Shown here one piece after another: positions 12,680 through 45,106 of a DNA stretch of 46,014 bases. Every line of letters begins with the position of its first letter. The first letter of the stretch is position 1. Position numbers and translations under genes: made by a program. The stretch is from the NCBI GenBank assembly GCA_001724265.1, contig MEDY01000048.1:62001-108014 (forward strand). The letters run 5' to 3'. The DNA is from Rhizaria sp. SCN 62-66 (lineage: Eukaryota). Under the pieces are notes generated by a model, which saw only the letters and a program-made list of their open reading frames with translations, was not told the DNA's origin and did no database searches.

Positions 12680-13853
12680 TGTGGGGCGGGGGGGCGTCAA
12701 ACTTGCGTGTTGAACCAAACGAACTGACAAAGAGAAAGGGCGAGAGTCAGCGCAAAAGAGGGGCGATTACGATGAGACAGCAAGTACGCGGAAAGTGCGG
12801 AGGTGTCAAACGCGTAAGAGAACGCTGTGGTGTGCGAGTGAGAGTGTGGCAGCGAGGGCGCTCGAAGTAAAGAGCTGGCGAAAGCGAAAGAGCAAGGGCC
12901 TGTGCTCAGCTCCGGTTCGCACACGCGGAGGAATGTAGCGGGGCGAGAAAGCAAAAGAGCGCGGTGTCGGGAAGAATAACGCGCTGAGAGAAGTGTTGGC
13001 TATGTGGGCAAAATGAAATCGAGAGAATAGAGGCAGAGAATGGGGGGTCGAAAGTGAGTGGGGAGATTCGAAGGGTCGCAGAAACAGACAGTGGCGAAGT
13101 CAAGAAATCGTCCGGCACAGGCGGCACACGCACTGCTAGGAAAACAAATATTCCGAATAGATGGCAGACAAGACGCACAATGCCGCATGACTAAACAGAA
13201 GCGCTTGGGGAATTGGTATCGAAAGCTGGAAGAGAGGAAACACTGGAGCAAGGAAGGGCGGTGTGGGCATCAGCGTGACGCATTGAACGGGCCAAAAACT
13301 ACGCATACGCACGACAGAACCGTGCAGAAATTATTGCCCACATACCACCCTCACGCCCAACAGATCATCCCAAAACAGGACTTCTTGTGCACCACTCTGC
13401 GCCGAGATACACCGCTTTATCGTCCAGCCACTCGCCTTCCTCGATCAATCCCGTCGCCCCCCTCGCAGGCACCAGCAGCTTGTGGATGTGGCTGGCCAAC
13501 CACGATCTTGCTTTGTCACATCAACTTGAGCGCACATTAAAACGCGAACTATGCATCGAAATCGCACAGGAGTGTGCATATAACAAGAAAACCTAGAATT
13601 TGATCATGCCATGCAGAATTTAAAAGCGAAAGCGCACAAAAAAACGGATATTTATTCGTTTCCAACAGTAACAAACAATAAGAAGAATAAGAAATCACAC
13701 AGAAAGTTCCCAGGAGGCCAAGACATATTAAATCAACTCAAACCAACCTCCCTTTTCACTCAAAACCACTTGCTATCACTCAATGCCCACGCAGTCTTGT
13801 TTTCACAGCTGCCCGATAGCATTTCGAGAGCGCATATACCCGCGATATTCCAT

Positions 13854-16547: not shown

Positions 16548-17913
16548 GGCTTTCTGTGGGTGGATGTATACAAGTCAATAAGAGTAATGGGTGTGGGTTG
16601 AAGGGCGTTTGAGTGTGGGGAGGGGTGGTTTGGGAGCGACGTCGACCTTCGGGAGGAAGGGGATATACAGTCTGGTATTACCCTGAGAGACAGACGATAA
16701 CTAATGAAAATGTCCACATGTGCGCTGTCGTGCTATTGGTGCAGCTTCATAGACAAAATCAAGTGTTAAGGCCATGAATCCCTGGCCGAAAGCGGATGGA
16801 CGAGTTCAGTCGGTCCTTCGAGCGAAACCAAGTATGCATCGCAGGCATAGATTGCGCTACACACCGCCTTCAGAGACAAAGAAATTTTGCCACACAACAC
16901 AAAGCAACTTGTTCTAATAGAAATCAAAACAATTAATCCGTTTGACGGACATCACGGTCCGTGGCATTGCGTCAACGATACCTCGAGTTGACTCGAGAGT
17001 TGCTGTCCTCGTCGCTCTTTGCTGCTCAGCCAGGTCGTCATAGCCAGATTGGAGAGACCGTGGGCACTCGCTCGCGGCCTGACTTTTTGGACCGAGCTGA
17101 TCGACCGACTGACCGACCGACTGGGACCGAGCAGCGGCCGAAGGGCTCATTAGCCAAGAGGCGAAGGAAAAGAGGCGCGCGCTGCGTTGTGGAGAGGCGA
17201 TATTTAAAATCGAATATTCGGATGAAAAAGAGAAGGTTGAGAGGTATCTTGGTGAAAGCCGCTTGTTGCTGTTCTACGCTTGGATTCCTGTCTACGAACC
17301 TCTTTTTTGACAAATTCGGCAAGGATGAGCGTTGTTCGCACATTCCACTGTTTGCCTCGATCTCGCGCTCTAAACACTCTCACAACGGCTCTTTTGCCCT
17401 TTAACAGAATCTCACCGATATTTTTTCTCTTTTAATAACCGCGTTACTCTACTTTTGTGCTTTTGTCACGCGACACGAACCTTTCTTCGTCGTCCCGCCC
17501 GATTTCTGCCCAACGCCTCTCTCGCGCCCCCCACCGCCCTCGTGCGTTTCCGCGTCACTCTCTCTTTCCCCCAACCTCTCTATATCGCTCTTGCACTCGT
17601 TCTCTGTCTCGACCTTCCCCTTTTGTTTAGTTTCTCCTTCACAAACCCTTCCCTTAGACCGCGCTGACCGTACTCCGTTCTCGCGTTCTTGCCTCACCCA
17701 AAGCTCACTTTCTGTAGTAAGCTCCCCAAGCTCTCGTAAGCTCTCCCAGCCCTCCAGCCTCACTTTCGCATTTGCGCGCTCCTTTGGCCGCCCTTTGCAG
17801 CCGCTTGCCAAAGCAGCGCCGCCGTCTTTGTACCTCACCGCCGAACCGCAACAGTTGACAGCACAACACACAAGCTTGCAAGCATCTTAACACACACAGA
17901 GCTCGTGACCACG

Positions 17914-20900
17914 ATGGATCTCGGTCTCCCTCTTCAAGATCAGCACGCCTCCGCTGCCCCCGCAGCCCTCTCATCCCCCATCATTGCCCCCAACGCTTCC
18001 GGCAGCGGTGCTTTGAGCGCTGACTCTAGCAGTGGCAGCGGTTCGATGCCTCCGCTCTCCCCTCTGGCCGCCGCCGCCGCCGCTGCTGCTGCTGCCCCTA
18101 TGGTCGCCTCCCCGATCTCCGCCCCCGCCGCAGCGCCGGCGGCAGTTTCTGCTGCTGCAATGGACGGCCTCAACGTCCCCGCGCCCCTCATGGACGCTGA
18201 CGACGACAACGGCGGCTTATATTCCGCTCCCTCCGTCTCGGCCGCGACTGACAACTCATCGTTCATGTCAAGCGCTGATGTTGCTCCTGTTGCTGCAGCT
18301 GTGCCTGGGGCGGCTTCGCTTGCACTGGCGCCGCTGTCTCCGATCGCATCCGTCCCTGCTCCGCCCGTCGCCGCCGTCGCCGTCGCCCCTGCCGCCGCCC
18401 CCGCTGCGGCAAGTGAGCCTGCTCCTGCTCCCGGGGCGAGTGCCCCTGCGCCCGTCGCAGCCATCTCAGCCTCCGATGCCTCTGCTGCTCCTGCTCCTGC
18501 TTCGGTCTCAGCCCCGTCTGTCGTTATTGCCGCAGACTCTGACTCAGCCATCACCGCCGCCTCTTCAGCAACGACATCTGCCGACTTCACTGCCGCTGCC
18601 GCGGCTGCTGCGGAGGCTGCCGTGAACGCGACTCCCAGCGCTGCCCACCCCCACATGTCCGAGTCGGGACTCATGATCTCGGGCGTCTACCGCTACGCAC
18701 ACCCGCCTCACCTGCTCGTGCCCTCCACGTTCCCCTCCAAGGACCTGTTTTACACGCGCCGCAACGCCATCGAGCGCGCCGCCCGACTCCCCAAGGGCTA
18801 CCGTCTCTTGCCCACCGACCCTCATCACCCTCTGGGCGCAGCGGCCGCGAACCCGAAGGCCGTGGCGGCCCGCCCTCTGACCGCGTTCGGGGGCCCCGCC
18901 GCCGCTGCCGGCGCAGCCGGGTCTGCGGACGCCGCCGGCGCCGGCGCCCCGGGTGCTGCCGGGGCGGCCGGCGGGGTGTCGATGTCGACGCTCTCGGCGG
19001 CCATGGCCACGCCCACTGTGCAGGTACGCACTTAGACACTTAGATGTCTCCGCAATATGCCCGTGATCTCGAATTAATTGTATTTAATTAAATTTACTTC
19101 TTCACGATCTACTCACACCTTTTTCTTTAGAACAAACCACTCATATATCGCTCTAATATGTTGTATTTTGCGTACTATTGTGTACTTTTGACAGGCGCGC
19201 TCGTCCCGTGCCGGGCGCAACCCCGGCCGCACCTCGCTCTCGGGCTCTATCTCCATGTCTGCCTACTCCGAGGGCGCCGCGTCGCTCGACCCCGTTATGA
19301 CCAAGTGCGAGGTGATCCTGACGGAGCTCAACGACCAGCCGTACTGCCACGTGTTCTCAGCACCCGTGGATCCCCAACGCGATGGCGTGCCGACCTACTT
19401 CGACGTCATCAAAAAGCCCATGGATCTCGGCACCGTGCGTTCTCGTCTCATCACCGGAAAGTACGAAAACGTCGCCCGCTTTGCCGAAGACGTGCGCCAG
19501 GTCTTCGTCAACGCCACGACGTTTAACCCGCGGGAAAACTGGGTTCACGGCCTCGCAGTCAAACTCGCAGAGTTCTTCGAGAGTAAGCTCACTGCTGTCG
19601 AGGCATTCGCAGCGGAGCATGAGGCCGCCAAGGCCCGGCGCAAGGCCGCGCGCAAGTCAGGCGCTGGCGCTGGAGGCAGTTCCGGTACCGGTGGGCAGCG
19701 GAAGCGTGGGTACGGTGACAACGACGGCGACGACGACGACGATGACGACGACGACGGGGCGAGCGTCGCCTCGACCGGCACCGCCGGCCGCGCGAAGAAG
19801 CCGCGCCGTCCGTCGGCGGCGTCGGGTCGCAGCGGCCGCAGCAGCAACGCTGGTGGCGACGATGACGAGGACGGCGGCGCCAGCGACGCGACTGGCGCGG
19901 CTGGCGGTCCGATGATCAACGGCAGCATGATGCAGATGATGAACAACAACAACAACAACAGCAACACCGCCGGTGCCGGTGCCGGTGGTGCGGGCGATAT
20001 GACACAGATGCAGATGATGTGGCAAATGATGCAAATGCAGCAGATGCAGCAGCAGATGGCGATGTTGGCCGCGGGCGCTGGCGTCCCAGACGGCAAGGGC
20101 GGGAATAAGAAGCGCCAGAGCACCGCCGGCGGCGGTGGCAAGGGCGGCGCCAATGCTGCGAACAACATGATGATGAATCCGATGATGATGGGCATGGGTA
20201 TGATGAACCCCATGATGATGAACATGGGCAACATGGGTGGCAACATGATGAATCCCATGATGATGAACATGGGCATGGGGATGAACCCCATGATGATGGC
20301 CGGCGGTGGTCCCAATAACGCTGCTCAGGGCAACGGCGCGGTTTCCAGCAACAGCAACAGCAACAACAAGCGAGCCAGCGGTGTCGGCGTCGGCGGTGGC
20401 GGCGGCAGTAAGACCGGCGTCGGCGCTGCCCCCAGCTCTTCCCGCAAGCCCTCTGTCACCGCCTCCGCGCCCCACTCCGCCGGCGACGCCGACGCCGCGA
20501 TGCATCAGCAGCAACAGCACGCGCAGCAGCAGCAGCAGCATCAAGTCAACACTGCGCATACGCTCCGTGTCGACCAGCTCAAGAATGACATGCAGGGCCT
20601 GACTGGCGACGACCTCCCGGGCCTGGTCAGCACGCTTCAGCGCTACGACCCCAGTTGGCAGCCCACCGACGGCAACATCAGCCTCGACCTGAACGCGCTC
20701 GACGTTGTCGTCATCGACGCACTCGAATGCTACGTCGCCAAATGCCGACAGAAGCGGACGATCGCTCAGCAGCAGCAGTCGTCGGTGTTCCGCTCCCCGC
20801 ACTATGACGCGTCGGCGTCGCGTCTTGCGGGGCTGCATGGCACGCCTGTCGGCGTCGGGGTAGGTCTCGGTGCCATCGCCAGTCCGGGCAGCATGGGCGT

Positions 20901-20946
20901 CTCTGGCGGCGCGCCCCCGTCTGACTCGGACTCGGACTCGGACTAA
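17914..20946 (+). CDS. Bromodomain + extra-terminal (ET) domain protein, BET/GTE-like, ~953 aa. Exons 17914-19023, 19195-20946
   Basis: Bromodomain VFSAPVDPQRDGVPTYFDVIKKPMDLGTV...FVNATTFNP with the conserved Asn; ET-like segment QLKNDMQGLTGDDLPGLVSTLQ..NISLDLNALD..IDALECYV. A phase-0 GTACGC...CAG intron joins the exons in frame; stop TAA. Confidence 0.9.
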
Positions 20947-22830: not shown

Positions 22831-24894
22831 TCACTCGCCATTATCAGCATTATCCTCCCCTTGCTGTGCCTGCAGCGCCAGCAGCGCTTGCTTCTTCCTC
22901 CGCGCACGCTCCCTGGCCCTCGCCTTGACCTCCTCGGACGCCTCCCTCAGGCGGTCATACTCCCTTTTCTTCTGCACGTACTCAGGATCTTTGTACCGCT
23001 CAGCATTTTCCTGCCGCTTCCGCTCCTTGACCGCGGGATCCAGCGTGCGCTGCATGTCGTAAGCGCGCTATTTCGCCCGCACCACGGGATCCAGCCGCCG
23101 CAGCCGCGCCTTTTCGTTCAGCAGCAGTCGGCGTTGTTCGCGCTCTGCAGGGCTCATCTTGTTCAGAGCCTTGGCCGAGTTGATCCGGTCGAGCTCCCGG
23201 CGGCGGTCCAGGCGGGCTATCTCATGGGGCGACATATCTTCACGGCGGCGGCAGCGGCGCCGGACGACGATAGGGTCCCCACTGGCGGCCGCGGCGGCCG
23301 CGGCGGCGGCCTCAGCGGCAGCAACAGCGGCGGCGGCCCTCTCGGCGACGGCAGCAGCAGCAGCAGCAGCAGGGGTGACGGCGGCAGAAGCAGGGGCGAC
23401 GGCAGTCACATCGCCGCTCACGGCGCCGGCGGCAGGGCTAGCAGCGGTGACGGCGCCGGCAGCCGAGACAACTGCGGTCGAGCAAACGCCGTTGTTCCTT
23501 CTGTCGCCCATATTGTTCTTGTTGTTACTGTTGTTGTTGCGGCGACGGGTGCGAGGCTCGGAGTCGGAGTCAGAATCGCTTTCATCAGAGGAGAAGGATG
23601 ACTCGTCGCAGTCTGAGCCGCGGAAATCAGAGTCGGAGTCGGAGGTAGAGAGAGACTTAGACTTTGGTTTTGACCGTGACTTTGCTTTAGACTTGCTCGT
23701 CTTGCTCTTGCTCTTGCTCTCGTCATTGCTCTTGTCACTGTCACTGCTGCTGCTGCCGCTGCTGCCGCTGCTACGCGAGGTAAAAGACTCAGAATCACGC
23801 ACGTACTTGACCGGAGACCGCGTTTCCCGAGCACGCGTCCTGGTACCCGTGGAGGTACCCGTGGGGGAACCAGTAAGGGAACATGTGAGGGAATCAGTGG
23901 GGGTATTCGCACTCGGACTGGCCCTCGCGTTAGGACTCGAGTTCACACTGGCGCTGGCGCTGGCGCTGGCGCTAGCGCTGATGCTGGTGCTGGTGCTGGC
24001 GGCGGCGGCGACTGTGTGTGTGCTGGTGTGAGCGTAGGACGGAGTCTGCCTTCGAGCTTCCTCGACTGCAGTCGGAGTTGCCGCTGCCGCTGCTGCCGCT
24101 GCTGCCGCTGCTGCTACTGCTGCTACTGCTGTACTGTGAGCCTTTGCTGCAGAGGCAGAGCCAGAGCCAAGCGCTGGCCGCAGCTATGACCGGAGAGGTG
24201 ACGCAGACGCAGACTCTACGCCTAACTAGGCGGGATAGCCAGTGGAAATGTTGTCCTCAGAGTCGCCGTGGCAGCCTGCGTAATTGTCACCGACGGTAAT
24301 GTCAGTGTCGAAGTTAGAGTCAGACTGAGTCATATCATCATCATCATCATCATCATCGTCATCATCATCAGAGTCGGTCTCAGAGTCAAAGTCGGAGCAC
24401 ATCATGCTGATGAAAATGTCGCTGTTGAGTATGGTACGATTCGCGAGAGAGCTCGCCTCCATAAGAGCGTTGCTCCTGAGGCTGGCGCTGCTAGAGAGGA
24501 GCAGTGCGCGCGCAAGCCGGTCGCTGAAGCTCTCTTTGGTGTGATGAGAATCACTCGAGCTAAGAGCAAGCGGGTACTGCTGTTGCTGTTGCTTTGAGCT
24601 GTTGCTCGGCGTCTTGCGAGGGCGCTTCGCATCAGCGCCGGGAGCAGCAGAGGCCGCGGCTGATGCGGTCACAGCTTTGACGCCAGCACGACGCCTCTTG
24701 ATCTAGATGTCGGATAAATGCTATGAAAACGTATTAAAATTGTGTGAAATAATACAAAGTGTGAGTATGCTAAGTAGAATTGTTGATCAGTGTTGTCATT
24801 AATGCAATGAAAGTGAACGAACGATAGCGGGCGAACAATAGTGTAGGCATAAAAGAGTTGGAGGTTGCCGAAAAATAAAACGTACCTGCGACAT
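22831..24894 (-). CDS. Unknown ~626 aa basic/acidic protein with C-terminal helical repeats; 3 in-frame TAG codons. Exons 24894-24886, 24702-22831
   Basis: ATG TCG CAG|GTACGT...TAG|ATC AAG AGG gives MSQIKRRR. The track ORFs 24226-24672, 23068-23946 and 22831-23055 share one frame and are separated only by TAG (24226-28, 24184-86, 23068-70). The gene ends in TGA. Confidence 0.75.
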
Positions 24895-26212: not shown

Positions 26213-27422
26213 TCACTTCACTGGCGACGGAATGATCGCAATCGCGAGCAGCACTCCGGCCACACAGAGCCCAAATGACCGTGCGGCAGCCCACGTGATC
26301 GGTCCAGTCATGTGTTCATCGCCGTCGTGACTGTGTCCATGTCCTCCCAGGTGACTACGCCGGCGGTGACCGTGAGTCGCACGCGTACCCTAACCGGTAC
26401 TCATGACACCAGTGCCCGTGACACCAGTACTCGTGGTGTTGTTCGTGCGTTTCCTGTGACGCCGGGGCACCTACATCCCCCGCTCCCGCAGCTCCGCGTT
26501 GCGCTTACGGCGCTCATCGTGGTCCACGTCGCTGTCTTCACTCCCCTCACTGCTGCTTTCGCCGCCGTTGTCGTCGTTGCCGTTGCCGTCGTCAGCGCAG
26601 ACTGAGGCGTCGTGCGTCACAGAGGAGTCGTCACTCTTCACACAGTCACTCTTACTCTTCTTCTCCTGACCGCCACTCTGGTCAGCAGCAGAGCCAGCGC
26701 TGTCCGTTATGTCCGCGACAGAAACAGGGATATCTGCGATCAAAAACGCAAGCACAGCCGCGATCACAGTGAGCAGCAGCCTTCGGTACCACGGCGCCGG
26801 CGGCGGGGGCAGCCGGCCGTACGCCCGGTCGACATTTTCGCGAACCTGCGCGTCGCCCATCCACGGGCACGGCGCGCCGAGCGCGGCGGCGACTTGGACA
26901 GCGCTGGCGACAGCCGTCTCCAGGAGCGGGACGCCGCAGACGGAGTAGGAGCCGACGAACCACAGGGCATGTGTTCCTTGCAGCCGCCAGAGCTCTTGCG
27001 TCGCGCGCAGCGACGCCCACGTCACCACGGGCCGCTCGAACGCCGAGACTGCGAGCGTGTGTTGCGGCGCTGGCGCGACAAGGGGGTTCCAGGTCTGGAA
27101 GATGTCGACGTCGGTGCGGAGCCCGTGCTGCACGCGGTTCATCCAAATGCTCGCCATGCCTTCGCGCTCGAGCGCCGCGATCTGGGCCGCGCGCGCGGGG
27201 GTGAGAACGCCGTCGAGGTTGCGCGGAGGTGCGCTCGCAGAGTTGTGGTCGTTATTGTTGTTGTTAGAGCTGTTATTAGCGCTGTCGGAGTCAGCGATGG
27301 GGGTGGGCAGAGGCGCCTGGGGAGAGCCGGATCCGGCGGAAAAGGGCAGCTGCATCGTCACTTCAAGCTTCAACGCTCCCAGAGCACCCGAGCTCACACA
27401 ACCACCAGCGTCAGAGTTGGCG

Positions 27423-27459
<37 letters not shown>

Positions 27460-29371
27460 AGTTGTGGGCGTTAGTTGCGCTGTTCTGGTCGCTAGTGAAA
27501 GACTGCATCTCCTGGAGCGAGTCTGGCAGGATGAAGTTCACCGAGCGCCAGTCGGCCCTCTTGGCGGGCATCAGGGCCGGGTCCGTGTGAAGCACCAAGC
27601 GCGACGACTCGTAGGGAATGCCACGCAGGGCGCGGTCGAGCGCGGCGCGGTCTGCGTCGTCGCACTTGCCTGTCAACACGTTCGCGGTGCAGCCAGCAGC
27701 GTCACTCACGCTCGCACTGGAACGAGAGCTAGAGGATGATAGTGTTGATGACGCGGAGTCAGGGGTCTTGTTGTCGCCGTTCTTACTGGCGTTAAAGTGG
27801 CCGCCGGCAAGGATGGCAGCGGACTGGTTGGCCTGTGTCGCAAAGACAACGTGGTCAAACGTATCCACGGCGCCCGTCGAGTCCGTCAACGTCACACGCC
27901 ACTTCTTCTCGTGCGTACCCTCACGAGTACCCACGGGTTCCGTGTCGACCCGCGTGATCCTGCGTCCCAGCCGCACGTCACTGCAGCGGCGCACCAGTTT
28001 ATGCACGATGTCCTGGGCCCCGCCGCGGGCACGCCTGACCCCACGCCAGGAACGCGTGACCAAGTACTGCACGACGACCCAAGCCGGGTAGTCGGCGGCG
28101 GCGCGGGAGGAGCACGTGCAGATCGAGGCCATAGTGGGAAGCATGAAGCGGTAGATGAAAGAGGTTGAGTACCGTTGCTGCAGTAAATATTCGAGCAGAG
28201 TAGGACCCTCAACGCCTTCGATCTCAGCAGGAGACTTGCCATTCGCACCCGCACTCGCACTCGCGGCCTTAGAGCTTGTGCTGTTGTTGCTGTTTTTGTC
28301 GTTGTTGGCGACAAGGGCCGACGCGTGGCGGAGACGGTCGGCGGAGGACAGCGTGCCATCGCAGAGATGCTTGTGGGATTCGTTGAGGAAACGCATCAAA
28401 TCACGCAGAATCACCCAGAACTCACCACTCACAGGGCCGTCAGTCACCTGCTGCTGTCGCGCACTTGCTGAGCTAGAGCTGGAGTTGGAGCTGGAGCTGG
28501 CGTTAGGGCTAGAGCGAGAGTTGTGAGAGTGTGCTTTGGGGTTGTATTTAGTCGAAAGTCCGAGGAACGCACGAGTACGCGTGACTGCTGCGGCGGCCGC
28601 CTGTGTGGCAAGCGCGACAGGCGACATGTAGGGCAGCGAAAACGAGCCCAGGAGCAGGTTGCGGTAGGCAAACAGTGTGGCGCCAGAGAGACAGGAGAAG
28701 GACGACTCGTAGTTCTCGGCCTAAAATGATACAACCAACAAATTCAAAGTGTACATGTGAGTTTTTTACAGTAAAGCCAAGGAATCACTGTGTGACAAAT
28801 ATTTAATTGTGCGGATAAATTAGAATTAACTCGGGAGTCACAAATCACATGAAGATATCTTGAGTGCAATTAGACGTACCTGGTACTTGACGCCGACACG
28901 GTCGTACAGCGCAGTCAAATGCGGGTAGTACGACTCCGTGAAAACACGCAGCGGCACGTCAACACGCACACGCGCGTCTAGTCCACTGCAAGAGCTACTG
29001 TTGGCTGCGTTGGGGATGTTTGCTGCGGCCGCGGCGGCGGCAGAGGGCGGGCCGTTAAGGACAGGCTCGTTGTCAGTGTTAGCATCGCCAGTGAGCGAAA
29101 AGGCACCAGAAGCAAAGTTATTGCCCAGCGTGATGCCGTTCGAGTCCATGCCGAGGTGCGAGGCGGCCTCGTAGACGACGACGTCGTGCTACAAAGGAGA
29201 CTCGGCGAGAAGGTAGGCCGCCGTGAGACCTGCGATGCCGGAGCCGACGACGGCGATACGCTGCCGCGAGTGCACGCGCTGCGGCAGGAACGCCGCCGGC
29301 TGCTGCTGCTGCGGCGGCGGCAGCGGCGGCTGCACGGAGGACGCAGCGGGCGCAGATGCAGGGGTGGACAT
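26213..29371 (-). CDS. COG2907-like predicted NAD/FAD-binding oxidoreductase (amine-oxidase fold) with C-terminal hydrophobic anchors, ~999 aa; 3 in-frame TAG codons. Exons 29371-28880, 28720-26213
   Basis: Rossmann motif RIAVVGSGIAGLTAAYLL..(TAG)HDVVVYEA..HLG. Further motifs VDVPLRVFTESYYPHLTALY, FDHVVFATQANQ, LVLHTDPALMP..W, LQG..LWFVGSY..GVPLLETAVASA. TAGs at 29189-91, 26471-73 and 26390-92; terminal TGA at 26213-15. Confidence 0.88.
27422..27457. repeat. (GTT)12 microsatellite encoding poly-Asn on the minus strand
   Basis: Directly visible; corresponds to the N12 tract in the oxidoreductase. Confidence 0.9.
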
Positions 29372-30070: not shown

Positions 30071-31921
30071 ATGTCGTTCCTCTCCCGGGCCCTGCAAGAC
30101 AGGCTCGACGAATTCAACGGCCGGCCCACCCTGCGTGAGCAGATGCGCGATGCACCCTCAAGGGCCGATGCGTTTTTGGTGCAGGTTAGGAACATGAAGC
30201 GCTCGTGCGTCAAGCGCGGTCTCGGCGACTTTGCGTCCGCCTTTTCCATGGGTCTCGTCGGTGGTTTTGCGCTCCATTTCCTCAAGACAGTCTACTTCTC
30301 GCCCCCCGGCATGGCGCGCTGGATTGAGGGCCTCCGCATGGGCTTTAAGAACGCCCCCAAGACGGGTTTTGCCTTCGGTCTCTGGGGTGGCATCTTTTCC
30401 ATCTCCGAGTGTTACCTCAAGAGGTGGCGTGGCGGCAAAAAGGACGCCCTGACGTCCATCGTTGCCGGTGCTTTCACCGGTGGCGTGCTGGCGTTCCGCG
30501 AGAACTCCAACGGCATCATGCGCGGCGCTCTCATTGGTGGCATGCTGCTCGGTGTCATCGAGGGCATCATCGGCGTCGTGACCTTCTTCGCCAAGGACGA
30601 TAAGGACGCCGAGGTTGTCCCTGTCAAGCTCATCGACGATGACAAAAAGGATGACATCGCCGAAGCCATCTACTTCTACCGTATGTACCGCTCCATGATC
30701 GAAAAGGGCAAAGACCACATTCAAGGCGCCGACAAGCAACGCGCCTTCATGGAAGTCTCCGCTGAGAAGAACGCTGAACGCGCCACAGCTGGCGCGGCTC
30801 GTATCCGCGACTCGATCAACACACTGCGCCAGAACGGCACCCCGTCGACGCTGCCGCCGCCACGCATCGCGCAGATCCTCAACGAGCGCCCTGGCTACGG
30901 CACCACGGCCAGCAGCGCGGCGTTTGATGTCGCCAATGACAACGCGCATCGCCGCGCGCTGGACCAGGCCCGCGAGGAGCACAAGGACTCGCTCAAGCTC
31001 ATGGGCTTCACCTTCGGCGCGCGCCCCGGCACGGCGCACGGCGACGCGTCGAAGAAGGAACGTCCCGACCCGTAGCAGGCGGCCGCGGCGCGCGAGGCCG
31101 CGGGCATCAAGGGCAAGATTATGAGCGCGTTCGGCACTGGCTACCGCGAGCAGTTCTACGACCCTGAGGCCGCGACCGACGAGCTGATGCGCGACGGCGT
31201 GACGCTCATGAATGACTACGACGAAGCCTACCGCGCGCACATCGCCGCGGGCGGTTCCGCCGATCTCGACCGCATGGAGGAGGAGATCTTCGAGCGTGAG
31301 ATGGCGCGCAGCGAAGGCGGCGAGGCCGCTGTGGCGCTGATCGAAGACGCGCTCAAGCGCCGCGAGCAGATGCGGCTGGGCGCGCGGCCGATGGCGCACG
31401 AGCCGTTGCTCGACGGCCCGCTGCCGAGTACCGGCGGGCACGAGTCGGCGTTCCTGGCCGCGCAGGGCAAGGGTTCCACGGCGCCGGGTGGGATCACGGG
31501 CTTCACGCGGGACCCCGTGACCGGGGAGATTACGAGTCTGACCGTAGACCGGCGCGCTGACGGCGGCGAAGACGCGCTGACTGAGGAGGCGATGACGGCG
31601 GCGGCCGGGCGCGCCCTGGAGAAGATTGCTGTGCTGGACTGGGGACGACGCAGGCAGCAACTCGTGCGGGACACGCAGCGTGAGCAGCGCCGCATCGAGC
31701 GCGAGTACCTCGGTAAGGACGACGACGACGGCGATGACGATGACGGCGATGATGAAGGTGGTGTTGACGGCTATGAGGCGAGTCGGAGCGAGGCTGGCGG
31801 CAGTCGGTTCACAGACTTCACCAAGAGCGGCGGCTACACTGCGGCCGAGAGGACGGCGATGCGCGCCAAGCGCAGGGAAGTGCTCGAGAACAAGAGCAAG
31901 AACAGCGGTAGCTGGTGGTGA
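30071..31921 (+). CDS. TIM17: Mitochondrial inner-membrane translocase Tim17-family protein with a long C-terminal extension, 616 aa; 1 in-frame TAG (31073-75); intronless
   Basis: The Tim17 domain is SC..R..GDFASAFSMGLVGG...APKTGFAFGLWGGIFSISEC...RGGKKDALTSIVAGAFTGGVLAFR...IGGMLLGVIEG. ORFs 30071-31075 and 31121-31921 are in the same frame, linked by TAG plus 15 sense codons (QAAAAREAAGIKGKI). Stop TGA. Confidence 0.85.
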
Positions 31922-32785: not shown

Positions 32786-35700
32786 TTATTCGCAAAATAA
32801 ATCGATGTTAAACGTGTCCGCCAACACTTCGAGCGCATGCCCCCACCCTTGCTCCCCCAACCGATACGGCGCCGGATCCGTTGCTGCCCCGGTGCTCGCA
32901 ACGCTCTCAGCATCGCGCTCAGCCTCCGCTGCGGTCGCGGGTGCCGCCGCCACCCCCGCCCTGGCAAGCGCAGCGGCACTGTCCGCGCTCACTGGACACG
33001 TGAACGGCGCGAGCGCTACCGCACTCTCGACCGGCATAGAGGCGTTCGCGCTGGCGCTGACGGTGGGCTCTAATCGGGCAGCAAGGCGAGATACGTAGGG
33101 TTGCAGCGGAGAAGCGGCGCCAGCGCGCAGTGCAGGCTCGAGCCAGTCTTCGAGAGCAGCGGCAGCGCGGACAGCAGGGAGACTGTGCGCACTCGTGGGG
33201 ACACGTGTGCGTGTGTGCGCGAGTGCGCGGGCGAGAAAGCGCGTGTTCTCTGGGAATAGCGGTGTCAGCATCACTCGGCGACCGTTACTTTTGTGCGCTG
33301 CCAGCATCTCAACTGACACTGATAACGGCACCGGGGCTGTTTTGAGGTTGTCATAGGTGATATTGCGCGGGGTCACCAAATAATTCATGTGCCTGGGTAA
33401 GTACCGCGGCTGCGCGTCAAACCACGAACCCATCGTATGACTGTTGCTGTCACCATTGCAGCTCTTCCTGAGATCGCTACTTGTACTGTCGTCATCACCA
33501 CCAAGCACGGCGCTGTGCCGTGCAGCTGCAAGCGCGATAGCGCAGCCCAGCCAGTCAAGCGGCACTGCACTGAGCTTAAACAGCATCGGCACACTGCTCT
33601 CAATCACATAATTCTGCGATTCGCGCGAGTTGCCGCTGTTGCTGCTCGGCGCCCAGTGCAAGTCCCTGCGTGGCAGCGGCGGCGCGAGACCGGTGCGTAG
33701 CGTCTCTGCGAGCGCTCGGTGCGGCAAATCAAGCGCAATCGCGCGCGGCCGCAGCGCCCGCGGGCCACGGTCGGCCAGTGCAGTCAGCACAGGCAGGCCT
33801 GTGTCAGGGTCGCGGCGGAAAGTTAAGCCGCCCCGAGCTACAGAAATGTGACCCGGGCTCAGCACCAGCAGGGGCAGAGCGTAGGCACGCGCGCAGGCAA
33901 CAAGCGCGCGCTCGCCAAGTAGCTTTGTTGCTGCATATCCACTCAGCGCAGACGCAGCAGTCGTTGAGACATGCGCAAAATTTGGCACATCATCAGACTG
34001 AAGTGCGCTGTGCCGATCGCAGTGCGTTGGTAACGCGTACGGCGCTAATGACGGGGACGAGGGATCAACGGTGTCAGTCGTCGATATGTGATACGTACAC
34101 GCCGCACAAGCGATTTCACTCGATACCTCGCTCCCACTCACACTGGCAGTCGCAGTTCCGGTCGCAGCCGCTGTTGTCGGTTGACTGCGCAGTGCGCGTG
34201 CTGAGGCGGCGAGCGCGGCAACCGTGACGCACGCCGCGGCGTTCGCAGCCCTCAGCTCAGGGTCCCAGGCCGGCGCAGCGTGGTCAACCGACGCCGCGCA
34301 ATGAAACACGGCCGTTGTGACCGCGGCCAGAGCGCGCCACTGACTGCGCGGGAGACCGAACCAGGGACGGGAGACGTCGGCGGCCACGGCGGAGACGTGG
34401 GCGGTAAAAGCGCGGCGGCAGACCCACCAACCACACGCGCCTGCGTCCGACTCAACACTGTTTTTCCACTCCGCTCTTGCGTTGGCGTCAGTGTGAGTTA
34501 AGATGCAATCGGTCGGTGCCATAAAGCGCGCTTTGACGAGCGCGCTTTCAAGCCTCGACAAAGCGGCGTGGCTGTAAACAAGCTTGTCGTTGTCACCATT
34601 GTCGTTGTCGCCGCTGCCATTGCCGCTACACCGCACAAGGGCTGTGACAGCCAGCGGCGCGTTCGTAACAGCAGCGAGTCGCAACAGAGCGCCCAGCAGT
34701 GCACCACCGACGGAGCCAGTGACCCCGGTCAGAACAGCGCGCGGTGAGGGACAGCACAACCACGGTGCGAGAGGGCCGGAGGATACTGTGCTCAAGACAA
34801 TGTCAACAGGCTTGTTGATGTTCAGAGCTTGCAGTTCTGCGAAAGAAAGGACAGATGCGAGGAGTGCCGTGAGCGGCGGCGGCGTCCACTGTTGGCAGCA
34901 CGGGAAAGGAAACGGCATCACTAACGCGTCGTTGTCAACGACTGACGCGCCGTTGTCAACGACATCACTCGCGGTAGTGGTAGTCGCATTGCCTGTGCCA
35001 GTGACGGGCGAGTTCATAGAAATGATGGCATCGTGAGTGTTATCTGGTACGGCTGCGTCACTCGCAAAAGAAGAGAAAGCTGCAGTGCCAGCATTGGTCT
35101 CGCCACAGCTCTCTCGACTTTGTGACCCTCGCTGAACACGGTCATCACCCCAGTATCCCAGCCTCCAGAGACACTGCAGCGACGCCTCAGGTGCGGACAT
35201 CACCCGCGCCACCGCGCCCGAGACTGCTGCAACTTCACGAGCGGTGCGCGTGAGTCCTGCGCTCAGGCGCTCAGCACTCGTGATTACAGCGCGTAGGCGC
35301 TGCAGCGCAAACGAGTCCACGCCCAAAGCGCGTAGTGGCGTGCGAGGTTCACGCAACAGCAGCTCAGCGGGACAGCCCGTCGCCTCCTCAGCAGTAGCCG
35401 CAAATAGGGCAAACGGCTCATCGTCGCGATGTAGCTTCACAGTCGTTGCGGCTCCGCCGTGAGCAAGGAGAGGCCAATGCGCAGCAGCAAGTGCAGCTAC
35501 GGTGGCGGGCGCGCGCGCGAGTTTCCCGCTGCCGGTCAGCGGCGGCAGCGCCAGCGTGGCCGTGACCGACAAAGGCAGCATGCGCAGCGCAGCGGGCAGC
35601 GCGTGCGACACACGGGGGGCAGCCACGGGATGCGACAGCGCGCACGCTAGCCGTGCCGGGGGCAGCATGAGACACGAATCAGCTGCGCGCGTTGCAGTCA

Positions 35701-38700
35701 CGCCGCTGTTAATGACATTGCTTGCGCTGTCGCTGCCGCCGGTATTTGGGGCGGAAGCGGCAGTGAGTGCGGTTGCGGCGTCCGTGGCGGCAGCGCGCTG
35801 AAGCAGCAGCGACTGCAGCGGCCATGTTGGTTGCGACGACTCGCTATCAAGCTCTGCCAGCGCAGCCCCAACCGCATCGAGAGTGACTGTCGCATTTTCG
35901 TCGCTCTCAGTGATACTTGAACCAGCGCAAAAAGCGTTGAGATTGCGGCTTGTGTGCTGAAGCCAGATCTGCAAGTCATTGAGCGCACGCTCAGCAGCGC
36001 GGCGCCACTCAGGAGATAGCCACAGCGCCAGCACCAGCCTCTGCCCGTCGCTCGCCTCGCCACGCATGCCGCTGTGGTCGCTGCTTCGACTACCGCCGTC
36101 ACTGCGGGGCGCGAGCAGCAGGGCCGCAGCCGGTGCGGGAACAACCGCCGCGGCGACAGCGGCTTCGGCGGCGTCAACAGCGACAAACTCGCCCGCGCGC
36201 GTGCGCACTGCGGCGGATATGCGGCCTAAGATGATGAGAGGGCGACGGCCGTCGGGGAAAGCAGCGCCAACACGCGCGATGTCACCGGTCGCATGCCAAC
36301 CAGCCCACTTGTCACAAGCAACAGCAGAGTCGTCAACGCAAGAGTCTGTAGTGTCTGCAGCGTTTCTACTGAAATCAGTGTTGCTTTCACTGGTCTTCGT
36401 CGAGTCAAGACAAAGATATCCAGCGCTGCGGCCACGCGAGCGCAGCATCAATTCGCCCACATCGCCCTCGCGCTCCAAAACCGCACTCACTAAAGCGGCA
36501 ACCGCATTAGAGTCACTCTGCGCAGACAGAGGCCGCAGCCGCGCCTCGGTTGCGCGCGCGCCGCCGTCAGGGTCATTCCCGCCCAGCAGCAGCCCGCGGT
36601 CGCCGCTGCTGACGGTGCCGGTCTCGGTTGTGCCGAAGCTCTCCCGCAGCGGCACCGCGGCGGCGGCCCACGCGCGGCGCGCATCGCCGCTGCCGAGAAC
36701 CAGGGACAGCGCGGCGCGCAGGGTGGCGGGCACGGGCGCGGAGCCCGTGGCGGCCTCAGACAGACGCATGCCAAGGGCGCGGCGGGCAAGAAGGCGGGCG
36801 CGCGCACAAGCCAGAGTCAGCGCGGCGGCCGCGTTCGCACCGCGGTACACGGCACGATCACTGACGGCGCGATGAGCTCGGTTTGCCGCGTGATTGGCTC
36901 CGTTGGTGGTGTGGCTGGTGGTGTCGAGCTGCTGCTGCTGCAAAGCGAAGGTGCGCGCGCGGTGAAGCAAGTCTTCCCAGATACGCGGCACTGCAAAAAG
37001 AGACGACGGAGCAAGAGCGGCACAGTGCGCCCACAAACTCAACCCGACGAGACCACCGGTCGACGCAGTCGCACTGTCACTCAGCACACCGCCGTGGACA
37101 CCCGGACTGCCGTGGTCAACATGAGCCCTCGTGCTGCTGCAACTGGCAGCCGCATCGGGGCAGTATAGCGCAACGCGGCCGCCGCGCGCAAGTGCGCGAA
37201 ACAATGCTGACTGTCCATTGTAGTGCGACAGAGGATCGTGCAGTAGACACACCGGAGGCGGGGCGCTCGCGTCGTCCGGCTCCAGACCGCTGTCGCCGTT
37301 CAGCACAGCCACATTCCCCACAGCGGAGTCATCACCGCCCACGGCGACGCTGTTATTCCACGTATTCTTGCATAAATGCGGCGCAACGGACCAAAGGAAG
37401 CCCGCGCGCGTGACCATGACGCCGCGCGGCGCGCTGCCGGAGGTGCCGGATGTCGGCAGCACGGCGTGCAACGACTCGGCCGCAGTGTTGATGCGCGACG
37501 CGGGGTCGCCAGATGACTCTGTGGCAGCGGCGATGCTGGCCACTGAAGCAGTCGTTAGACCTGAGGCTGCAACATTTGATGTAGCTGCTGCCAACTTGGA
37601 TGAAAGAAGAGAGCGCATTGAGAGCACAGTGACGCCACGTGAACTCGCTAGCACATGCACTGCGTTGACAGTGCAAGCGTTATTGTTATGCGTGGCGCAT
37701 GCATCGTGGTCTTCGGAGTCCACATCAAGCAGCAATACCACTCGGGGCAACACGAAGACAGCATTATCGTCGCTGCAACGATTCACACTGCGTTTGCGAA
37801 AGCTGCTATCGTAGCAGTGACAGCGCAGCAGCCGCAGCGCAGCGCCGGCAGGCAGCGCAACTGCAGACACAGCGCCAGTCAGCGTCAAAGAGCGTAGATA
37901 CGCAAGCTCGGGCGAGTGCGGGCATTTGCAACCACGAGCCACGGTCGGCGACTGCGACTGCGCTTGACACCGTGACTGGGACTGAGACTGCGATTGTGAT
38001 TGAACTGCCTGCGGGCTGCAGCAAGGAGGATGTGACTGTGAGAGCGTTGCATCCCACGGCACCCAGTGCGGCACAAAGCACGTCTCAGGAAGTCTGGCCG
38101 CGCCAGGAAGTTTGGCCGCGCCATAAAGTTTGGCCGCATTTGGCGACAGTGTTGGCGGCGAGAGCGACATAGCGACCGTGAGCAGCGCAAGCGCAGGTGA
38201 CGCAGGCGCACACACTGCAACACAGTGCACTTGATCGCGTGCAGTCGGCTGCGCTGCAGCTGTAGAGGGCGTATCATTGCGCGCTTCAGAGCCCGTCATA
38301 CATTGCGTATCGTGCGCCTTCGCGTTAGTGTCCGTGGTGGCAGCTGCGATCACAGCTGTGGTCACAGCTGAGGTCGCGAGTGACTGCGAGAGGGCACTGG
38401 CGAACGACTGGGACAGCGTGGTCGCGAGTGCAAGAACCTCAGCGTAAGACAGCCAGGCAAAGAGCCTGTTCGCAGAGGGCTGCATGGGCAACAGCGACTG
38501 CGGCCGCGAATGTAACTGTGACGACGACACAGTCACATCACGGCCAGCGCCAACGCCGGCGGCTGCGGACGCATCAAGAATGTCCATCGAAGCACTGCTT
38601 GTATCGGGTTTGACATAGGATACATCGCACATCTCACCGGACACTGTGTCGGCCTCTAACTCCTCTAGTGTGCAATTGAGATCGAAAAACGCCCGCATCG

Positions 38701-39823
38701 CAGCCGGCAGCCACCGCGGCGGCGCCTCACGTCCACTCGCACTCGCGCTCGCACACGTTGCGGCACAGATGCTTGCCATGGCGCGATCGCCGGCAAGAAC
38801 ACGCGCGCTACCGGTGGCGCAGGCAGCGTCCCTAACGCCGACGCCGGCCTCGGCGGCACGGACAGCAGAGCTGCGCGCGCAGAGAGCAGAGCCGCGCGCG
38901 CAGCCAGCACTGGCACGGGCCGGGGACGGCACAAGCGCCGCAGCGAGCGCGGGCGCCGTGGCCGCCCTCGGCAGCGGGCGCCAGTGCGCGCCGCAGTCCC
39001 ACGCGCCGCCGGAGCTGTCTTGGCCGACTCCAGCATCGCGCTCCGGCGTACGGTCACCCTGCTACTGCTACTGCTGTTGCTGCTGTTGTTGTTGTCGTTG
39101 TTGTTGCTGTGGTTGTAAATCGCGGTCACTTGCGCTTGGTGTATTGGTGCGGGCCAGAGCACGCAGAGTGGCCATTGCCGCGCGGTCCCCGGCGCCTAGG
39201 CACGGCCTGCCCGGGTGCAGCGCGGCAGCAGCCGCAAACGCAGCGCCAGCCGAGAACGCCGCGAGCTACGAAGCGGGCTAAGATGAAGCAGCCGCCGGCT
39301 CCAGTGGCTCTGGCGAGCAGAGGTGGCCGCGATGCGGCCGCGCGGCGGCGCAGGGCCGGCACAGCCACACGCGCGCGGGCGGAGCGAGCGTCGCAACACT
39401 GGCGCCGAACGCTGGGTCCCACGGGTCGCAGCGCGCGCGCGGCACGAGCAGCGGCGCACGCGCGCCGGAGCAGTCCCAGCAAACGAGCGCGTGGTGGTGC
39501 AGCGGCGCGGCGCAGTCGTGGCAGGGCGCGGTGGCGGCGCGCGCGGCGTGCGCGGCGGCCAAGTCCGTGGCGAGCGCGCCCGCGGCCTCGCGCTGCTTCA
39601 TGGCAGTGTACTCAGCGGCGGTCAGACCCATCATGCGGAGCACTTTCGCGGTCGGCAGCGGGGCGGCGGCGTCCGCAGCTGTTGTCGAGGACGCTGTTGT
39701 CGCAAGCGCTGTTGTCGCCATTAATGTAGCTGTAGAATCCGCGGGTATGGCAGCAGGCGTCGATTCACCATCGTCAAGGTCGAGGCGATGGGCTCCAGCG
39801 CCGGGGCGCTGCCGGGAGAACAT
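32786..39823 (-). CDS. Carboxylic-acid-reductase-like NRPS-type enzyme (adenylation, carrier, thioester reductase) with an N-terminal Cys/His finger, ~2345 aa; 4 in-frame TAG codons; apparently intronless
   Basis: A-domain motifs PTSGTSGSAPRGV, PLSH, AVPRIWE, TGSAP, FGTTETG, GELMLRS, WHATGDI, GR...AGEFV and LTGSGKLAR. Carrier motif LGVDS. Reductase motifs LTGVTGSVG, DVSRPWFGL, HCAASV and GYAATK. ORF 39278-39823 joins ORF 32786-38932 in frame through TAGs at 39278, 39266, 39068 and 39062. Stop TAA. Confidence 0.85.
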
Positions 39824-41862: not shown

Positions 41863-44800
41863 ATGTCGTCCTCTGAGCACGTCGAGCTTAGCGAGGCGGT
41901 GGTTGGGCAGCTCCGCGCCCTGGCCTCCTCTCTTGGCACTTACATTGCCGAATTAGAGGGTTTCAACACCGCCGTCGTGGCGCCCATGCTCAAACTTGCT
42001 AACTCCGAGGACTGCTGGCGCGCAAGCGGCTTTGCTGCCCAAATTCCGCGCGCACGCTACGCCGCCCTGTGCGCTGACGCCTTCGCCAACGTCCAAGCTT
42101 TCTCCGGACTGCACCGGCCGTTGTTTGAGGCCGCCGCAGCAGCTGCAGCCACGGCAGCCACAGCCGGCGACGGCCGCACTGCGTGGTTTCCTCTCCACTT
42201 TGCGCCTGATGCTATCGCTATTGCAAACGCTCCGTTCGCGCACGCCTCGGTCGGCGCCACCGCCGCTGCTCTGCTGAACCAGCCTTTCCCGTCCTCTGCC
42301 GCTGCGTCCTCCGCCTCGGCATCAGCCTCCGATGCGGGGTCCGAACCAGTGACGCAGATGCTGGCGGCGCTGCTGGCGTTTGCTGCACCCGCAAACGGCC
42401 CCGCTGCGCGCGCCTACGGTGACTTTGGCGCCCTCGTCTCCTGCAACGCTGTTGCGGCCCTCGAAACGGTACGTTTTTCACTGCGTATCTCAGTTAAATT
42501 CTAGAACTTCCCAAAGAAACGCCTGTGGTGTTTCATAATGCTACTTGTTTACTAAAAACTGAGGTATTGTGCTGACTTGTGTTTTTTGCGTCGCTTTGCG
42601 CCTTGCTCTTCCCTCGTCCATAACGCAGGAGTCCGCCGCGGTGTCAGAGTTCCTGACTGCCTCGCTCGCGCGCGCGTCGCTGCCATCGCTCCCCGCGGCG
42701 CTGCTGCTGCCCGCGCAACACCTCGCCGCCTTGCGCGCCCACGTGCTTGCGTTTGCGCCCGCAGCCGCTGCCTCAGCCGCAGCCGCGCTGCCCGCTCTCT
42801 TATCACCTGCCAGTCGCAGTCCGAGTAGTGCGAGCGCTGACGGCGGTGTCGACGCTCTCTCAGCGTGGCTCACGCCGCTGCTTACTGCGCTGTGCAACGA
42901 TCAAACCGCCAGTGCGACTGCCAGTGCGAGCGCGAGTGCGAGCGTGACTGTGAGCAACGCTCAGCGTGCCGCGGCCGCCGCGCTAATGGCCGCTCTCGGC
43001 CTCCTCCGCCTCGCTAATGCGGCGCCCGACTCGCACCCCCACGCCGCCGCTGGCGCGGTGTTGCCGCTAGAGACCGTGGCCGATATTGTGCCTTTCCTTC
43101 GCATCGGCGACTCTGGCGCCGGCGGCGCTCACGGTCACTCCCACGCAAGCGCCGCTGGGGTGGCGACTGTGAGCCTGGGGGAGGCGCGTGCGCTGTCGTG
43201 GCATCTGGCGCGCGCGGCGCTGCTGCTGTCCGCCGCGGCCGCGCTCTGCGCTCTGCCCAACGCCGATCCCACCGCAAGCTGGCGCGGCGCGAGCGAGTCC
43301 GCGAGTGCAACCGCACATGGGCCCGTCGTCGCTGCTCACGGTCACTCTCCTGCTCACGGTCACGGACAGGGTCACACTGGCGCGTTTGTGAGGCCCGCGG
43401 TGCTGACCGAGGCCGCGTCCGCCGCAGCCGCCGCGGCCGCGGAGGCCGGTCTTGCGCCCCCGCACGGCGGCTTCCTCGCGGCCCGCTTCTCCACCGCCAA
43501 CAGCTCTATCCACAGCAGCAATCATGGCAACAGTGGCAGTAGCAGTGCGAGTGCGGGTGTCGCGGCGCTTGCGTCGGCCGCGGCCGCCCCGTTGGAGCGC
43601 GCGCTAGGGGCCTTCCCCTCCACCACGACGCCCATCGCTGCCGGATGGCTCTCAAAGCGCTCGAACGCAGTCAGCAACACTGGCACTGGCACTGGCAGTG
43701 GAGCGCAGCAGCAGTCAGCGCAGCGGTACTTTGCGCTGTTTCCGCTGCTGTTGGCGTGGGGCGACGGCGCCGTGCTGCGCGGCAGCGTGGCCTTCTCGCG
43801 CGTCACCGTGGCCGAGCCGGTACCGGGGCTGCCGCGCGCGTTCAAGCTCACCGTCGCCGTCGAAGAGGAGATCGCCGACAGCAACGGCGGCGACGGCGGC
43901 AGTGACTGGAAGGACGATGACGGGAGCAGTAACGGTGCGCTCAGTGCTGCTGGCCCGCTGTCGCCGCTGCCCGGCCAGCGTCTGCAGCGCCGCAGCAACT
44001 ACGCACACTCGCAGTCTCTAAACGGCAGCTCTGGCTCTGGGGCCGGGGTGCGGACGCGGACGCTGATGCTCACTGCGAGCACCGAGCGCGAGGCCAAGGC
44101 GTGGCTGGCTGCGCTGACCGCAGCGGCCGACGCAGCCGCGGAGGCGTTCGCAGCGGCCGAGGCAGTGCTGGGCTCGGCCGCTCTGGTGAGCAATCGCTAC
44201 GACCACAGTCGGAGTCACAGTCAGATTCACAGTCACGCTGAGGGGCACGGCGGCGACGGCGCGGGCGATGAGCACAAGGACTACCCCTCCCCGGCCGGCG
44301 CCCGCAGTCGCACCCACGCCCACGGGCACAGTCACAGTCAGTCAGGCCCTGGCTCAGACTCTGGCTCTGGGTTTGTGAAACACAGTGCACTGGGCATGCC
44401 GCCGTTGCCCGACGCCGCGCTGGGGGAGGCTCGCGCCCGCGCGGCCGCCGCGCTGGCGCGCGCCGGGCTCACCCCGACCCCCGGCCAGCCTGCCGCTGCG
44501 CACGGTCACTCGGCTGCGGCGGAGACTGAGGTGCGGGCGCGTCCGCCCCGTGGTCCGTCTCGCGGTCCGCCACTGTCGGACCCTGCTCACGGCCACTATT
44601 ACTACAACCATAACACGCCGCAGACGGCTGCGACTGGGGGGCGGCTGCGCGCGTCGTCACTCACACCGGGCGCCGGCGGCTTAGCTTCCGCCGGCGGCTT
44701 AGCTTCGGACAGCAACAGTGGCAGCACGCACCTCTCACAGTCGCACTCGGGCCACTTGCAGTTTCCGCAACAGCACCCACAGCAACAGCACCCACAGCAG

Positions 44801-45106
44801 CAACACCCACAGCAGCAGCACTCGCAGCAGCAGCAATTGCGTTCGCGCGCGCCGTCTCGCGCCGACGCTGCCGGCAGCCACGGCACGGGCGGCCGCGCCA
44901 GCGCTGGCCCCGGCGGCCGGCGGTCGCCCTTCCTCGAGGTCGCGGCTCGCGTGCGCGCGAGCGTGCAATCCGCCGAGCGCCGGCTCGCGGCGCTGGCGCG
45001 GATTGAGGACGACGCCGCGCGCGCAGTGCGGACGGCGCTGGAGGATGTCCGCGGCAAGGTCGCCGCGCTTGTGGCCGCGGCAGCGGCGCCGCTGCCCGCC
45101 GAGTAA
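41863..45106 (+). CDS. PH-domain protein with a degenerate N-terminal DH (RhoGEF)-like region, ~1027 aa. Exons 41863-42468, 42629-45106
   Basis: PH motifs PIAAGWLSKR..QRYFALFP..RAFKL..RTLMLTASTEREAKAWLAAL. DH-like pattern TYIAELEGF..VVAPM, AFANVQAFSGLHRPLF, EFL..SLPAALLLPAQHL. Phase-0 GTACGT...CAG intron; stop TAA. Confidence 0.72.

Follow-up and report, generated by a model that had tools for sequence, protein, structure and literature searches.

The DNA analysed here is a 46,014-nt stretch (the window) of contig MEDY01000048.1, positions 62,001 to 108,014, from Rhizaria sp. SCN 62-66 (assembly GCA_001724265.1). An earlier note, made from the sequence alone, had pointed out two TAG codons within a polyglutamine tract on its minus strand and proposed that TAG encodes Gln. 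Our analysis indicates that UAG is very probably a sense codon in this DNA, with UAA and UGA as the stops. If UAG is sense, its meaning is probably Gln. The tract itself is likely translated in the frame of the large open reading frame (ORF) that holds it, as judged from the coding signal. That all of this holds at once (a sense TAG, a translated tract and Gln as the residue) we consider somewhat better than an even chance.

Evidence that UAG is a sense codon

The window contains 11 exonic in-frame TAG codons in ~9,500 codons, and not a single in-frame TAA or TGA. They are distributed over 4 genes:

26213..29371, minus strand: NAD/FAD-binding amine-oxidase-like (flavin-oxidoreductase) gene, ends with TGA; exon 1, 29371..28880; intron, 28879..28721 (GTACGT...TTTTAG, 159 nt); exon 2, 28720..26213; in-frame TAGs at 29191..29189 (Rossmann loop), 26473..26471 and 26392..26390
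30071..31921, plus strand: Tim17/22/23-family gene with a long C-terminal extension (Pfam Tim17, E-value 1e-19), ends with TGA; in-frame TAG at 31073..31075
22831..24672, minus strand: low-complexity gene that carries basic 17-residue repeats as a C-terminal array, ends with TGA; in-frame TAGs at 24228, 24186 and 23070
32786..39823, minus strand: large ORF of 2,345 codons including TAA, from ATG 39823 to TAA 32786 with TAG read through; four in-frame TAGs, at 39280, 39268, 39070 and 39064

The ten gene ends found in the window (a small sample) comprise 5 TAA, 5 TGA and no TAG. The GC content of the 60 nt that follow the TAA and TGA gene ends is 0.20-0.52, and it falls in all 9 cases measured, whereas after the exonic TAGs it is 0.62-0.73 and falls in none of the 8 measured. 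The sole TAG situated at a GC drop, 19033, is intronic. By gene ends and GC drops alike, UAG is unused as a terminator while UAA and UGA are used. The TAGs at 23070, 26473, 29191 and 31073 are carried unchanged by contigs of other sequencing runs and are therefore not assembly errors.

The flavin-oxidoreductase gene provides a homologue that is continuous across the TAGs. The homologue search carried out with this gene retrieved 54 proteins, the best of which is P0009, a metagenomic protein of 913 aa that represents the orthologue in a related organism. It exhibits 74% identity to exon 1, ungapped at TAG 29191. Exon 2 aligns with it over 866 columns at 50% identity, and this alignment extends through the last residues of both proteins; the 58-residue stretch that follows TAG 26392, the last of the three, matches the C-terminal hydrophobic tail of P0009 on its own, with an E-value of 5e-7. 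P0009 spans the TAGs at 29191, 26473 and 26392, all three of which lie inside coding sequence that is continuous in the homologue.

P0009 was absent among the 80 metagenome loci reported by a scan with the oxidoreductase alignment, where the best loci, L001 and L002, reached 37% identity over the best segment. L001 represents an environmental relative (47% identical), whose organism uses the standard code, with TAGs at ORF ends only and long glutamine (Q) runs free of TAG, and it therefore yields no TAG columns. The Q runs in L001 4234..6642 (plus strand) and 6660..9050 (minus strand) exceed 40 residues and contain no TAG, and a neighbouring ORF of L001 carries what we take to be a fungal-type Zn2Cys6-like motif. 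The scan of genome contigs for relatives returned a bacterial homologue only.

In the Tim17 gene the 282 codons that follow the TAG have +0.53 bits/codon in the same frame vs -0.41 and -0.67 in the others, the GC content is 0.73 after the TAG vs 0.35 after the TGA, and there is no room for an intron at the TAG. A 407-base contig from a polyA-RNA run spans 30982-31388, ungapped and unchanged across the TAG; it adds little weight, since the run may contain DNA (it also covers some intergenic stretches), and no splice joints at the defined introns are reported among the RNA contigs listed. One contig from a DNA run (X4) stops precisely at 31072, with the TAG starting at the next base, which may reflect a sample variant or chance.

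TAG 23070 splits a 17-residue repeat unit in the C-terminal array of the low-complexity gene (DPVVRAK-TAG-RAYDMQR; a comparable unit is e.g. NPEVRERERAYDRARR in P0007). An exhaustive HMMER search with the C-terminus of this protein gave 6 matches at E-values up to 0.001, namely its own database copy (P0003), which ends at TAG 23070, and 5 weak repeat-sharing proteins (P0004-P0008), in which the 17-residue unit is found intact 26 times. The basic repeats, of the form DPxV[RK]xx-x-RxYDxxR, occupy 22834..23310 of the minus strand and are in tandem also in P0004-P0008, some of which presumably possess HNH-nuclease C-termini, judging from their appearance. A search restricted to near-length proteins found no homologues of the Tim17 extension or of the C-terminus of 22831..24672.

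The CAR/TAG tract

39058..39115, minus strand: CAR/TAG tract of 19 codons, Q P Q Q Q Q R Q Q Q Q Q Q Q Q TAG Q TAG Q

The codon reading that the earlier note gave for 39110..39058 of the minus strand, CAG CAA CAA CAA CGA CAA CAA CAA CAG CAG CAA CAG CAG TAG CAG TAG CAG, is exact, and both TAGs (39070..39068 and 39064..39062) are in frame. The tract begins two codons upstream of the described run, with CAA CCA (39115..39110). Positions 39059-39075 form a perfect 6-base tandem (plus-strand unit CTGCTA, minus-strand TAGCAG; 2.8 copies, 100% matches according to Tandem Repeats Finder), and for this reason the two TAGs count as about one event, not as two independent ones; most simply, the pair would be one C-to-T change duplicated by slippage. 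The alternation of TAG with CAG in the manner of a synonym, on which the note had relied, is indeed present, but as one tandem event it is weaker evidence than it appears.

The note had also suggested measuring the enrichment of TAG in polyglutamine against other homopolymer tracts. Tallied within the window, 1 of the 78 homopolymer runs of at least 4 residues carries TAG, and it is one among 11 Q runs; this is a single event, by itself not significant. A similar pattern at 24078-24131 (minus strand), CAG CAG TAG CAG CAG TAG, results from viewing an Ala/Val run (GCA GCA GTA GCA) of the gene 22831..24672 out of frame, so that a CAG/TAG alternation can arise without any Gln.

The amino acid encoded by UAG

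The claim of the earlier note that TAG equals Gln has two parts. That TAG is translated is borne out by P0009, the split repeat unit, the continuation of the Tim17 gene and the gene ends; that the residue is Gln is what we infer, with an estimate that combines the prior given by published meanings, the alignment columns and the Q context. On this basis Gln is the probable meaning of a sense UAG. Glu retains a small share of the probability, Lys and Ser have a marginal one each, and Leu comes last.

Two of the TAG sites can be aligned. For the column of TAG 29191, located in the loop before strand 2 of the Rossmann fold, 40 of the 54 homologues were aligned (excluded were a single long fusion and the 13 partial matches that were weakest), and they exhibit E10 R10 K8 G3 T3 N2 D2 H1 Q1. 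The column of TAG 23070, taken over 28 repeat units including two other units of the same protein, exhibits K12 E9 H2 M2 R1 D1 Y1. The summed BLOSUM-based log-odds are 2.30 bits for E, 2.08 for K, 1.69 for R, 0.94 for Q, -0.87 for S, -3.72 for L and -3.78 for W; the value for H, 5.12, rests on a single orthologue residue. The columns would thus indicate a polar residue, not Leu or Trp, with a slight lean to Glu or Lys over Gln. They tell polar but not which polar residue, since both are variable surface positions. The earlier note had stated that none of 11 sites falls on an invariant alignment column: the two alignable columns are indeed variable and no TAG falls on a conserved Gln column, while site 19033, presumably among those counted, is intronic. 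It had named Leu, Glu, Tyr or Trp dominating conserved TAG columns as a finding that would speak against Gln; Leu and Trp are absent, and Glu ranks with the most frequent residues of both columns, neither of which is conserved.

As to the context, Q has a Q neighbour in 99 of 269 cases (36.8%), whereas for the other residues the frequency is 1.6-10.8%. A Q neighbour is found for 3 of the 11 TAGs, two in the tract and one in Tim17, where CAG follows the TAG. The tract, which had been presented as the best clue in the window to the amino acid, is a plausible pointer to Gln, albeit a weak one; the Rossmann-loop TAG at 29191, the best alignable site, is a better handle.

Several observations weigh against Gln. 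Q is found in only 1/40 and 0/28 of the sequences in the two alignable columns, which are led by E, R and K. P0009 has G at 29191, H at 26473 and a gap at 26392. Once the tract pair is set aside, the neighbours of the other 9 sites single out no residue clearly (Q, -0.85 bits). The polyglutamine clue amounts to about one event, and a CAG-to-TAG mutation can produce it whatever TAG means.

An alternative is that UAG is sense but stands for another polar residue (Glu, Lys or Ser), in which case the TAGs of the tract would be tolerated missense changes in a disordered run. The log-odds of E and K, which exceed that of Q, agree with such a meaning (that of S does not), as does the origin of the tract pair by one mutational event in a CAG-rich repeat, CAG to TAG being a single transition; moreover, UAG=Glu is published for the ciliate PL0344 and UAG=Ser for Scotinosphaera, in the account of PMC11687900. 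On the other hand, a Q neighbour is found for just 3.5% of E, 4.0% of K and 5.9% of S, compared to 36.8% of Q and 3/11 TAGs, the two surface columns do not specify the residue, and Gln is the commonest of the UAG-only meanings covered in PMC11687900. We regard a different polar residue as unlikely and prefer Gln.

In the reading that we prefer, UAG is a sense codon with UAA and UGA retained as terminators, and the tract 39115..39058 would be a translated Gln run that belongs to the disordered N-terminal extension of a large protein of the adenylation/reductase type. A single CAG in the tract would have changed to TAG, and the TAGCAG unit would then have been duplicated by slippage. UAG would be decoded as Gln by a tRNA whose anticodon is CUA, one base from tRNA-Gln(CUG). 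The reading frame of the tract and the tRNA mechanism are, like the Gln identity, what we infer. No tRNA gene or Rfam family was found within the 46-kb window, and the eRF1 gene lies outside it.

The reading frame of the tract

In the large ORF, a ~348-aa low-complexity N-terminal extension is followed by an adenylation-like region that is divergent, by a weak match to PP-binding and by an NAD_binding_4 domain of the thioester-reductase type (Pfam, E-value 3e-18). Pfam reports no match to the AMP-binding domain in this ORF, and the N-terminal 348 aa match no family. The table-11 ORF 32786..38932 (2,048 aa) shares its frame with the tract. A fifth TAG in the same frame, 39841, falls within an AT-rich leader upstream of the likely start ATG 39823.

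Between 38932 and 39850 the frame of the ORF contains five stop triplets, all of them TAG, whereas the other two minus-strand frames together contain 2 TAG, 1 TAA and 8 TGA. Both flanks of the tract score as coding in the frame of the ORF: 39265-39116 has +10.5 bits vs -30.3 and -19.5 in the other frames, and 39058-38900 has +7.2 bits vs -24.2 and -26.6. On these grounds the tract is probably translated in the frame of the ORF.

The evidence is not uniform, and the following points count against translation in this frame. Taken by itself, the tract reaches +37.4 bits when read one base over, as NHSNNNDNNNSSNSSSSS, vs -24.5 in the frame of the ORF, because CAA is the minor Gln codon and AAC and AGC are favoured codons. 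Its CAA-rich codon usage is atypical for Gln runs in the window: the other in-frame runs of at least 4 Q (n=10) are CAG-rich in 8 cases, the remaining two being a run in 22834..24672 with 2/5 CAA and the run just before the tract (CAG CAA CAA CAA) with 3/4 CAA. The segment 39559-39283, in the middle of the N-terminal extension, has a coding score of -15.2, yet this is the best among the three frames. No transcript covers 39058-39115 among the RNA contigs listed.

CAA-rich Gln-like runs elsewhere in the window (810-845, 3747-3773, 27417-27464 and others) are out-of-frame Asn (AAC) runs, with the tract itself and the short preceding run CAG CAA CAA CAA as the in-frame exceptions; the frames were determined by hand, and the statement is limited to the runs so checked.

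An explanation that takes up these points is that the tract is not translated as Q...TAG...Q at all, but belongs to an unrecognised intron, to a long 5' leader or to an Asn/Ser run read one base over. The last of these draws on the score of the tract in the +1 frame and on the hand-checked out-of-frame runs, and one base over the alternating pair of the tract becomes AGT/AGC, which are true synonyms. It would, however, need two compensating frameshifts exactly at the edges of the 57-base tract, and the flanks do not code in the +1 frame (-30.3 and -24.2). An intron or leader is suggested by the negative score of 39559-39283, by TAGs 39280 and 39268, which are preceded by pyrimidine-rich stretches resembling 3' splice sites, and by the N-terminal 348 aa, for which neither a homologue nor an RNA contig was found; a scan of metagenome contigs likewise revealed no relative of the 2,385-aa ORF, and no homologue covers the tract. 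Against it, no intron-like stretch (AT-rich, 159-171 nt, with a GTA(C/G)G start) exists between 39823 and 38780, where the GC content is 0.53-0.87 per 60 nt; 14 of the 96 scoring segments in the body of the large ORF also fall below 0; and across 306 codons TAA and TGA are absent from the frame of the ORF but number 9 in the other two. We consider an untranslated or differently read tract improbable and retain translation in the frame of the ORF.

Comparison with known genetic codes

In the accounts of PMC11687900 and PMC5304391, UAG alone is reassigned to Gln in Iotanema spirale, Protocruzia tuzeti and two phyllopharyngean ciliate lineages, to Leu in the rhizarian exLh and one phyllopharyngean lineage, to Ser in Scotinosphaera, and to Glu in PL0344, where UAA is Lys; code 15 is named in PMC9523058. 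The window resembles the code 15 type (Iotanema and others) in that UAG occurs in frame in coding sequence and UAA and UGA are the sole terminators. It differs in that no TAG sits on a conserved Gln column, the two alignable columns being variable, so that Gln is here a likely meaning. For Iotanema, PMC5304391 gives 204 UAG in 126 genes, with UAA at 104 and UGA at 15 gene ends. UAG is similarly rare in the window, about one per gene (11 in ~9,500 codons, ends TAA 5, TGA 5). The tRNA(CUA) one base from tRNA-Gln(CUG) was proposed for Iotanema and shown in Tetrahymena, as described in PMC5304391, and reassigned Gln codons in Q-rich tracts are described for ciliates in PMC10942620.

As a GC-rich 46-kb multi-gene contig with spliceosomal introns, the window is unlike the gene-sized chromosomes of ciliates.

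The UAR=Gln codes (code 6 type: many ciliates, Hexamitinae, ulvophytes, Streblomastix and Amoeboaphelidium) share with the window the likely meaning Gln. They are ruled out, since TAA terminates five genes here, each followed by an immediate drop in GC content, and no in-frame TAA is found. Scotinosphaera and PL0344 are comparable in that the meaning of UAG is separate from that of UAA. The Glu of PL0344 fits the two polar columns, but UAA is retained as a stop in the window, unlike in PL0344; the Ser of Scotinosphaera fits the columns less well (-0.87 bits); and the Q-run context points to neither.

With exLh the window shares a UAG-only reassignment in a non-ciliate protist. According to PMC5304391, UAG in exLh is rare in ribosomal protein genes and common in proteasome genes. 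A comparable unevenness is seen here, where the five long genes without TAG (2..2626, 2756..5074, 8930..12730, 19195..20946 and 42569..45106) have mostly the strongest codon bias (0.39-0.66 bits/codon, compared to 0.23-0.53 in the TAG-bearing genes). The Leu meaning of exLh does not fit. UAG-only reassignment to Leu with UAA and UGA as stops is known (PMC5304391), and a Leu codon directly follows 3 of the 11 TAGs, but Leu occurs in 0/40 and 0/28 of the aligned sequences, P0009 has G and H at its sites, and the log-odds of -3.72 bits are ~25-fold below Q, which makes Leu very improbable.

Equally improbable is the standard code, in which the TAGs would be real stops, pseudogene lesions or assembly errors with open frames beyond them by chance: long chance ORFs, many of them antisense, are expected in GC-rich DNA, and public pipelines call truncated forms (P0003 and a 334-aa Tim17 form in ESM Atlas), but such lesions would need to be TAG in all 11 cases, although the stop triplet most often seen out of frame is TGA (3 to 6 times commoner than TAG), and the P0009 alignment over three TAGs (with the matching tail), the recurrence of TAGs in contigs of other runs and the GC drops confined to TAA/TGA ends all argue against it.

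The organism and its genes

The bromodomain/BET, Tim17, Kelch, EDR2_C and carboxylesterase genes together with the spliceosomal introns identify the window as eukaryotic DNA. AT-rich spacers separate GC-rich coding stretches, and the GC content is 0.46-0.68 per 2 kb. Public runs that contain the DNA of the window are bioreactor, wastewater and activated-sludge metagenomes, and near-identical DNA is present in runs of two further studies. The window is best explained as nuclear DNA from a GC-rich, uncultured eukaryote belonging to wastewater/bioreactor communities. The named relatives of the oxidoreductase in the homologue search are mostly from fungi, which is a lineage hint only.

Three introns were defined; they are 159-171 nt long and AT-rich and start with GTA(C/G)G. 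The 5' splice sites observed in the window are GTAGGT, GTACGT and GTACGC. Five of the six recognised 3' splice sites consist of a T-rich stretch followed by TAG, and the sixth (19194) is CAG; the majority of TAGs close to ORF starts are therefore the ends of introns and not sense codons.

15338, 16187, 28721, 40593 and 6680 (positions given for the minus strand): T-rich 3' splice sites with TAG
17905..20946, plus strand: bromodomain/BET gene, exons 17905..19023 and 19195..20946, with a 171-nt in-frame intron 19024..19194

This intron joins the bromodomain/BET ORF to the Ala-rich ORF 17905..19023 as a single gene; its boundaries are CAG|GTACGC ... TTTTGACAG|G and its interior is AT-rich. The TAG at 19033..19035 was accordingly rejected both as a sense codon and as a terminator.

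Implications

The pattern of TAG in the window is that of the UAG-only reassignment type, and it corresponds to code 15 if the residue is Gln. A handful of lineages with UAG-only nuclear reassignment are known from PMC5304391 and PMC11687900. Nothing relevant emerged when the literature was searched for altered codes among eukaryotes of activated sludge, and a GC-rich non-ciliate wastewater organism with such a code was not found in the genetic-code literature searched (supplements lay outside the search). We tentatively suggest, at a little less than an even chance, that the window represents a UAG-only reassignment not described before, one that arose independently in a non-ciliate lineage recurrent in wastewater/bioreactor communities. 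If UAG were Glu or Lys with UAA as a stop, the code would, if true, be one unreported for any nuclear genome. Each new UAG-only case tests how UAG decouples from UAA. The organism is seen in engineered water systems, and its public proteins are cut at TAG, as in P0003 and the Tim17 form in ESM Atlas; metagenome pipelines therefore under-call and mis-call its genes.

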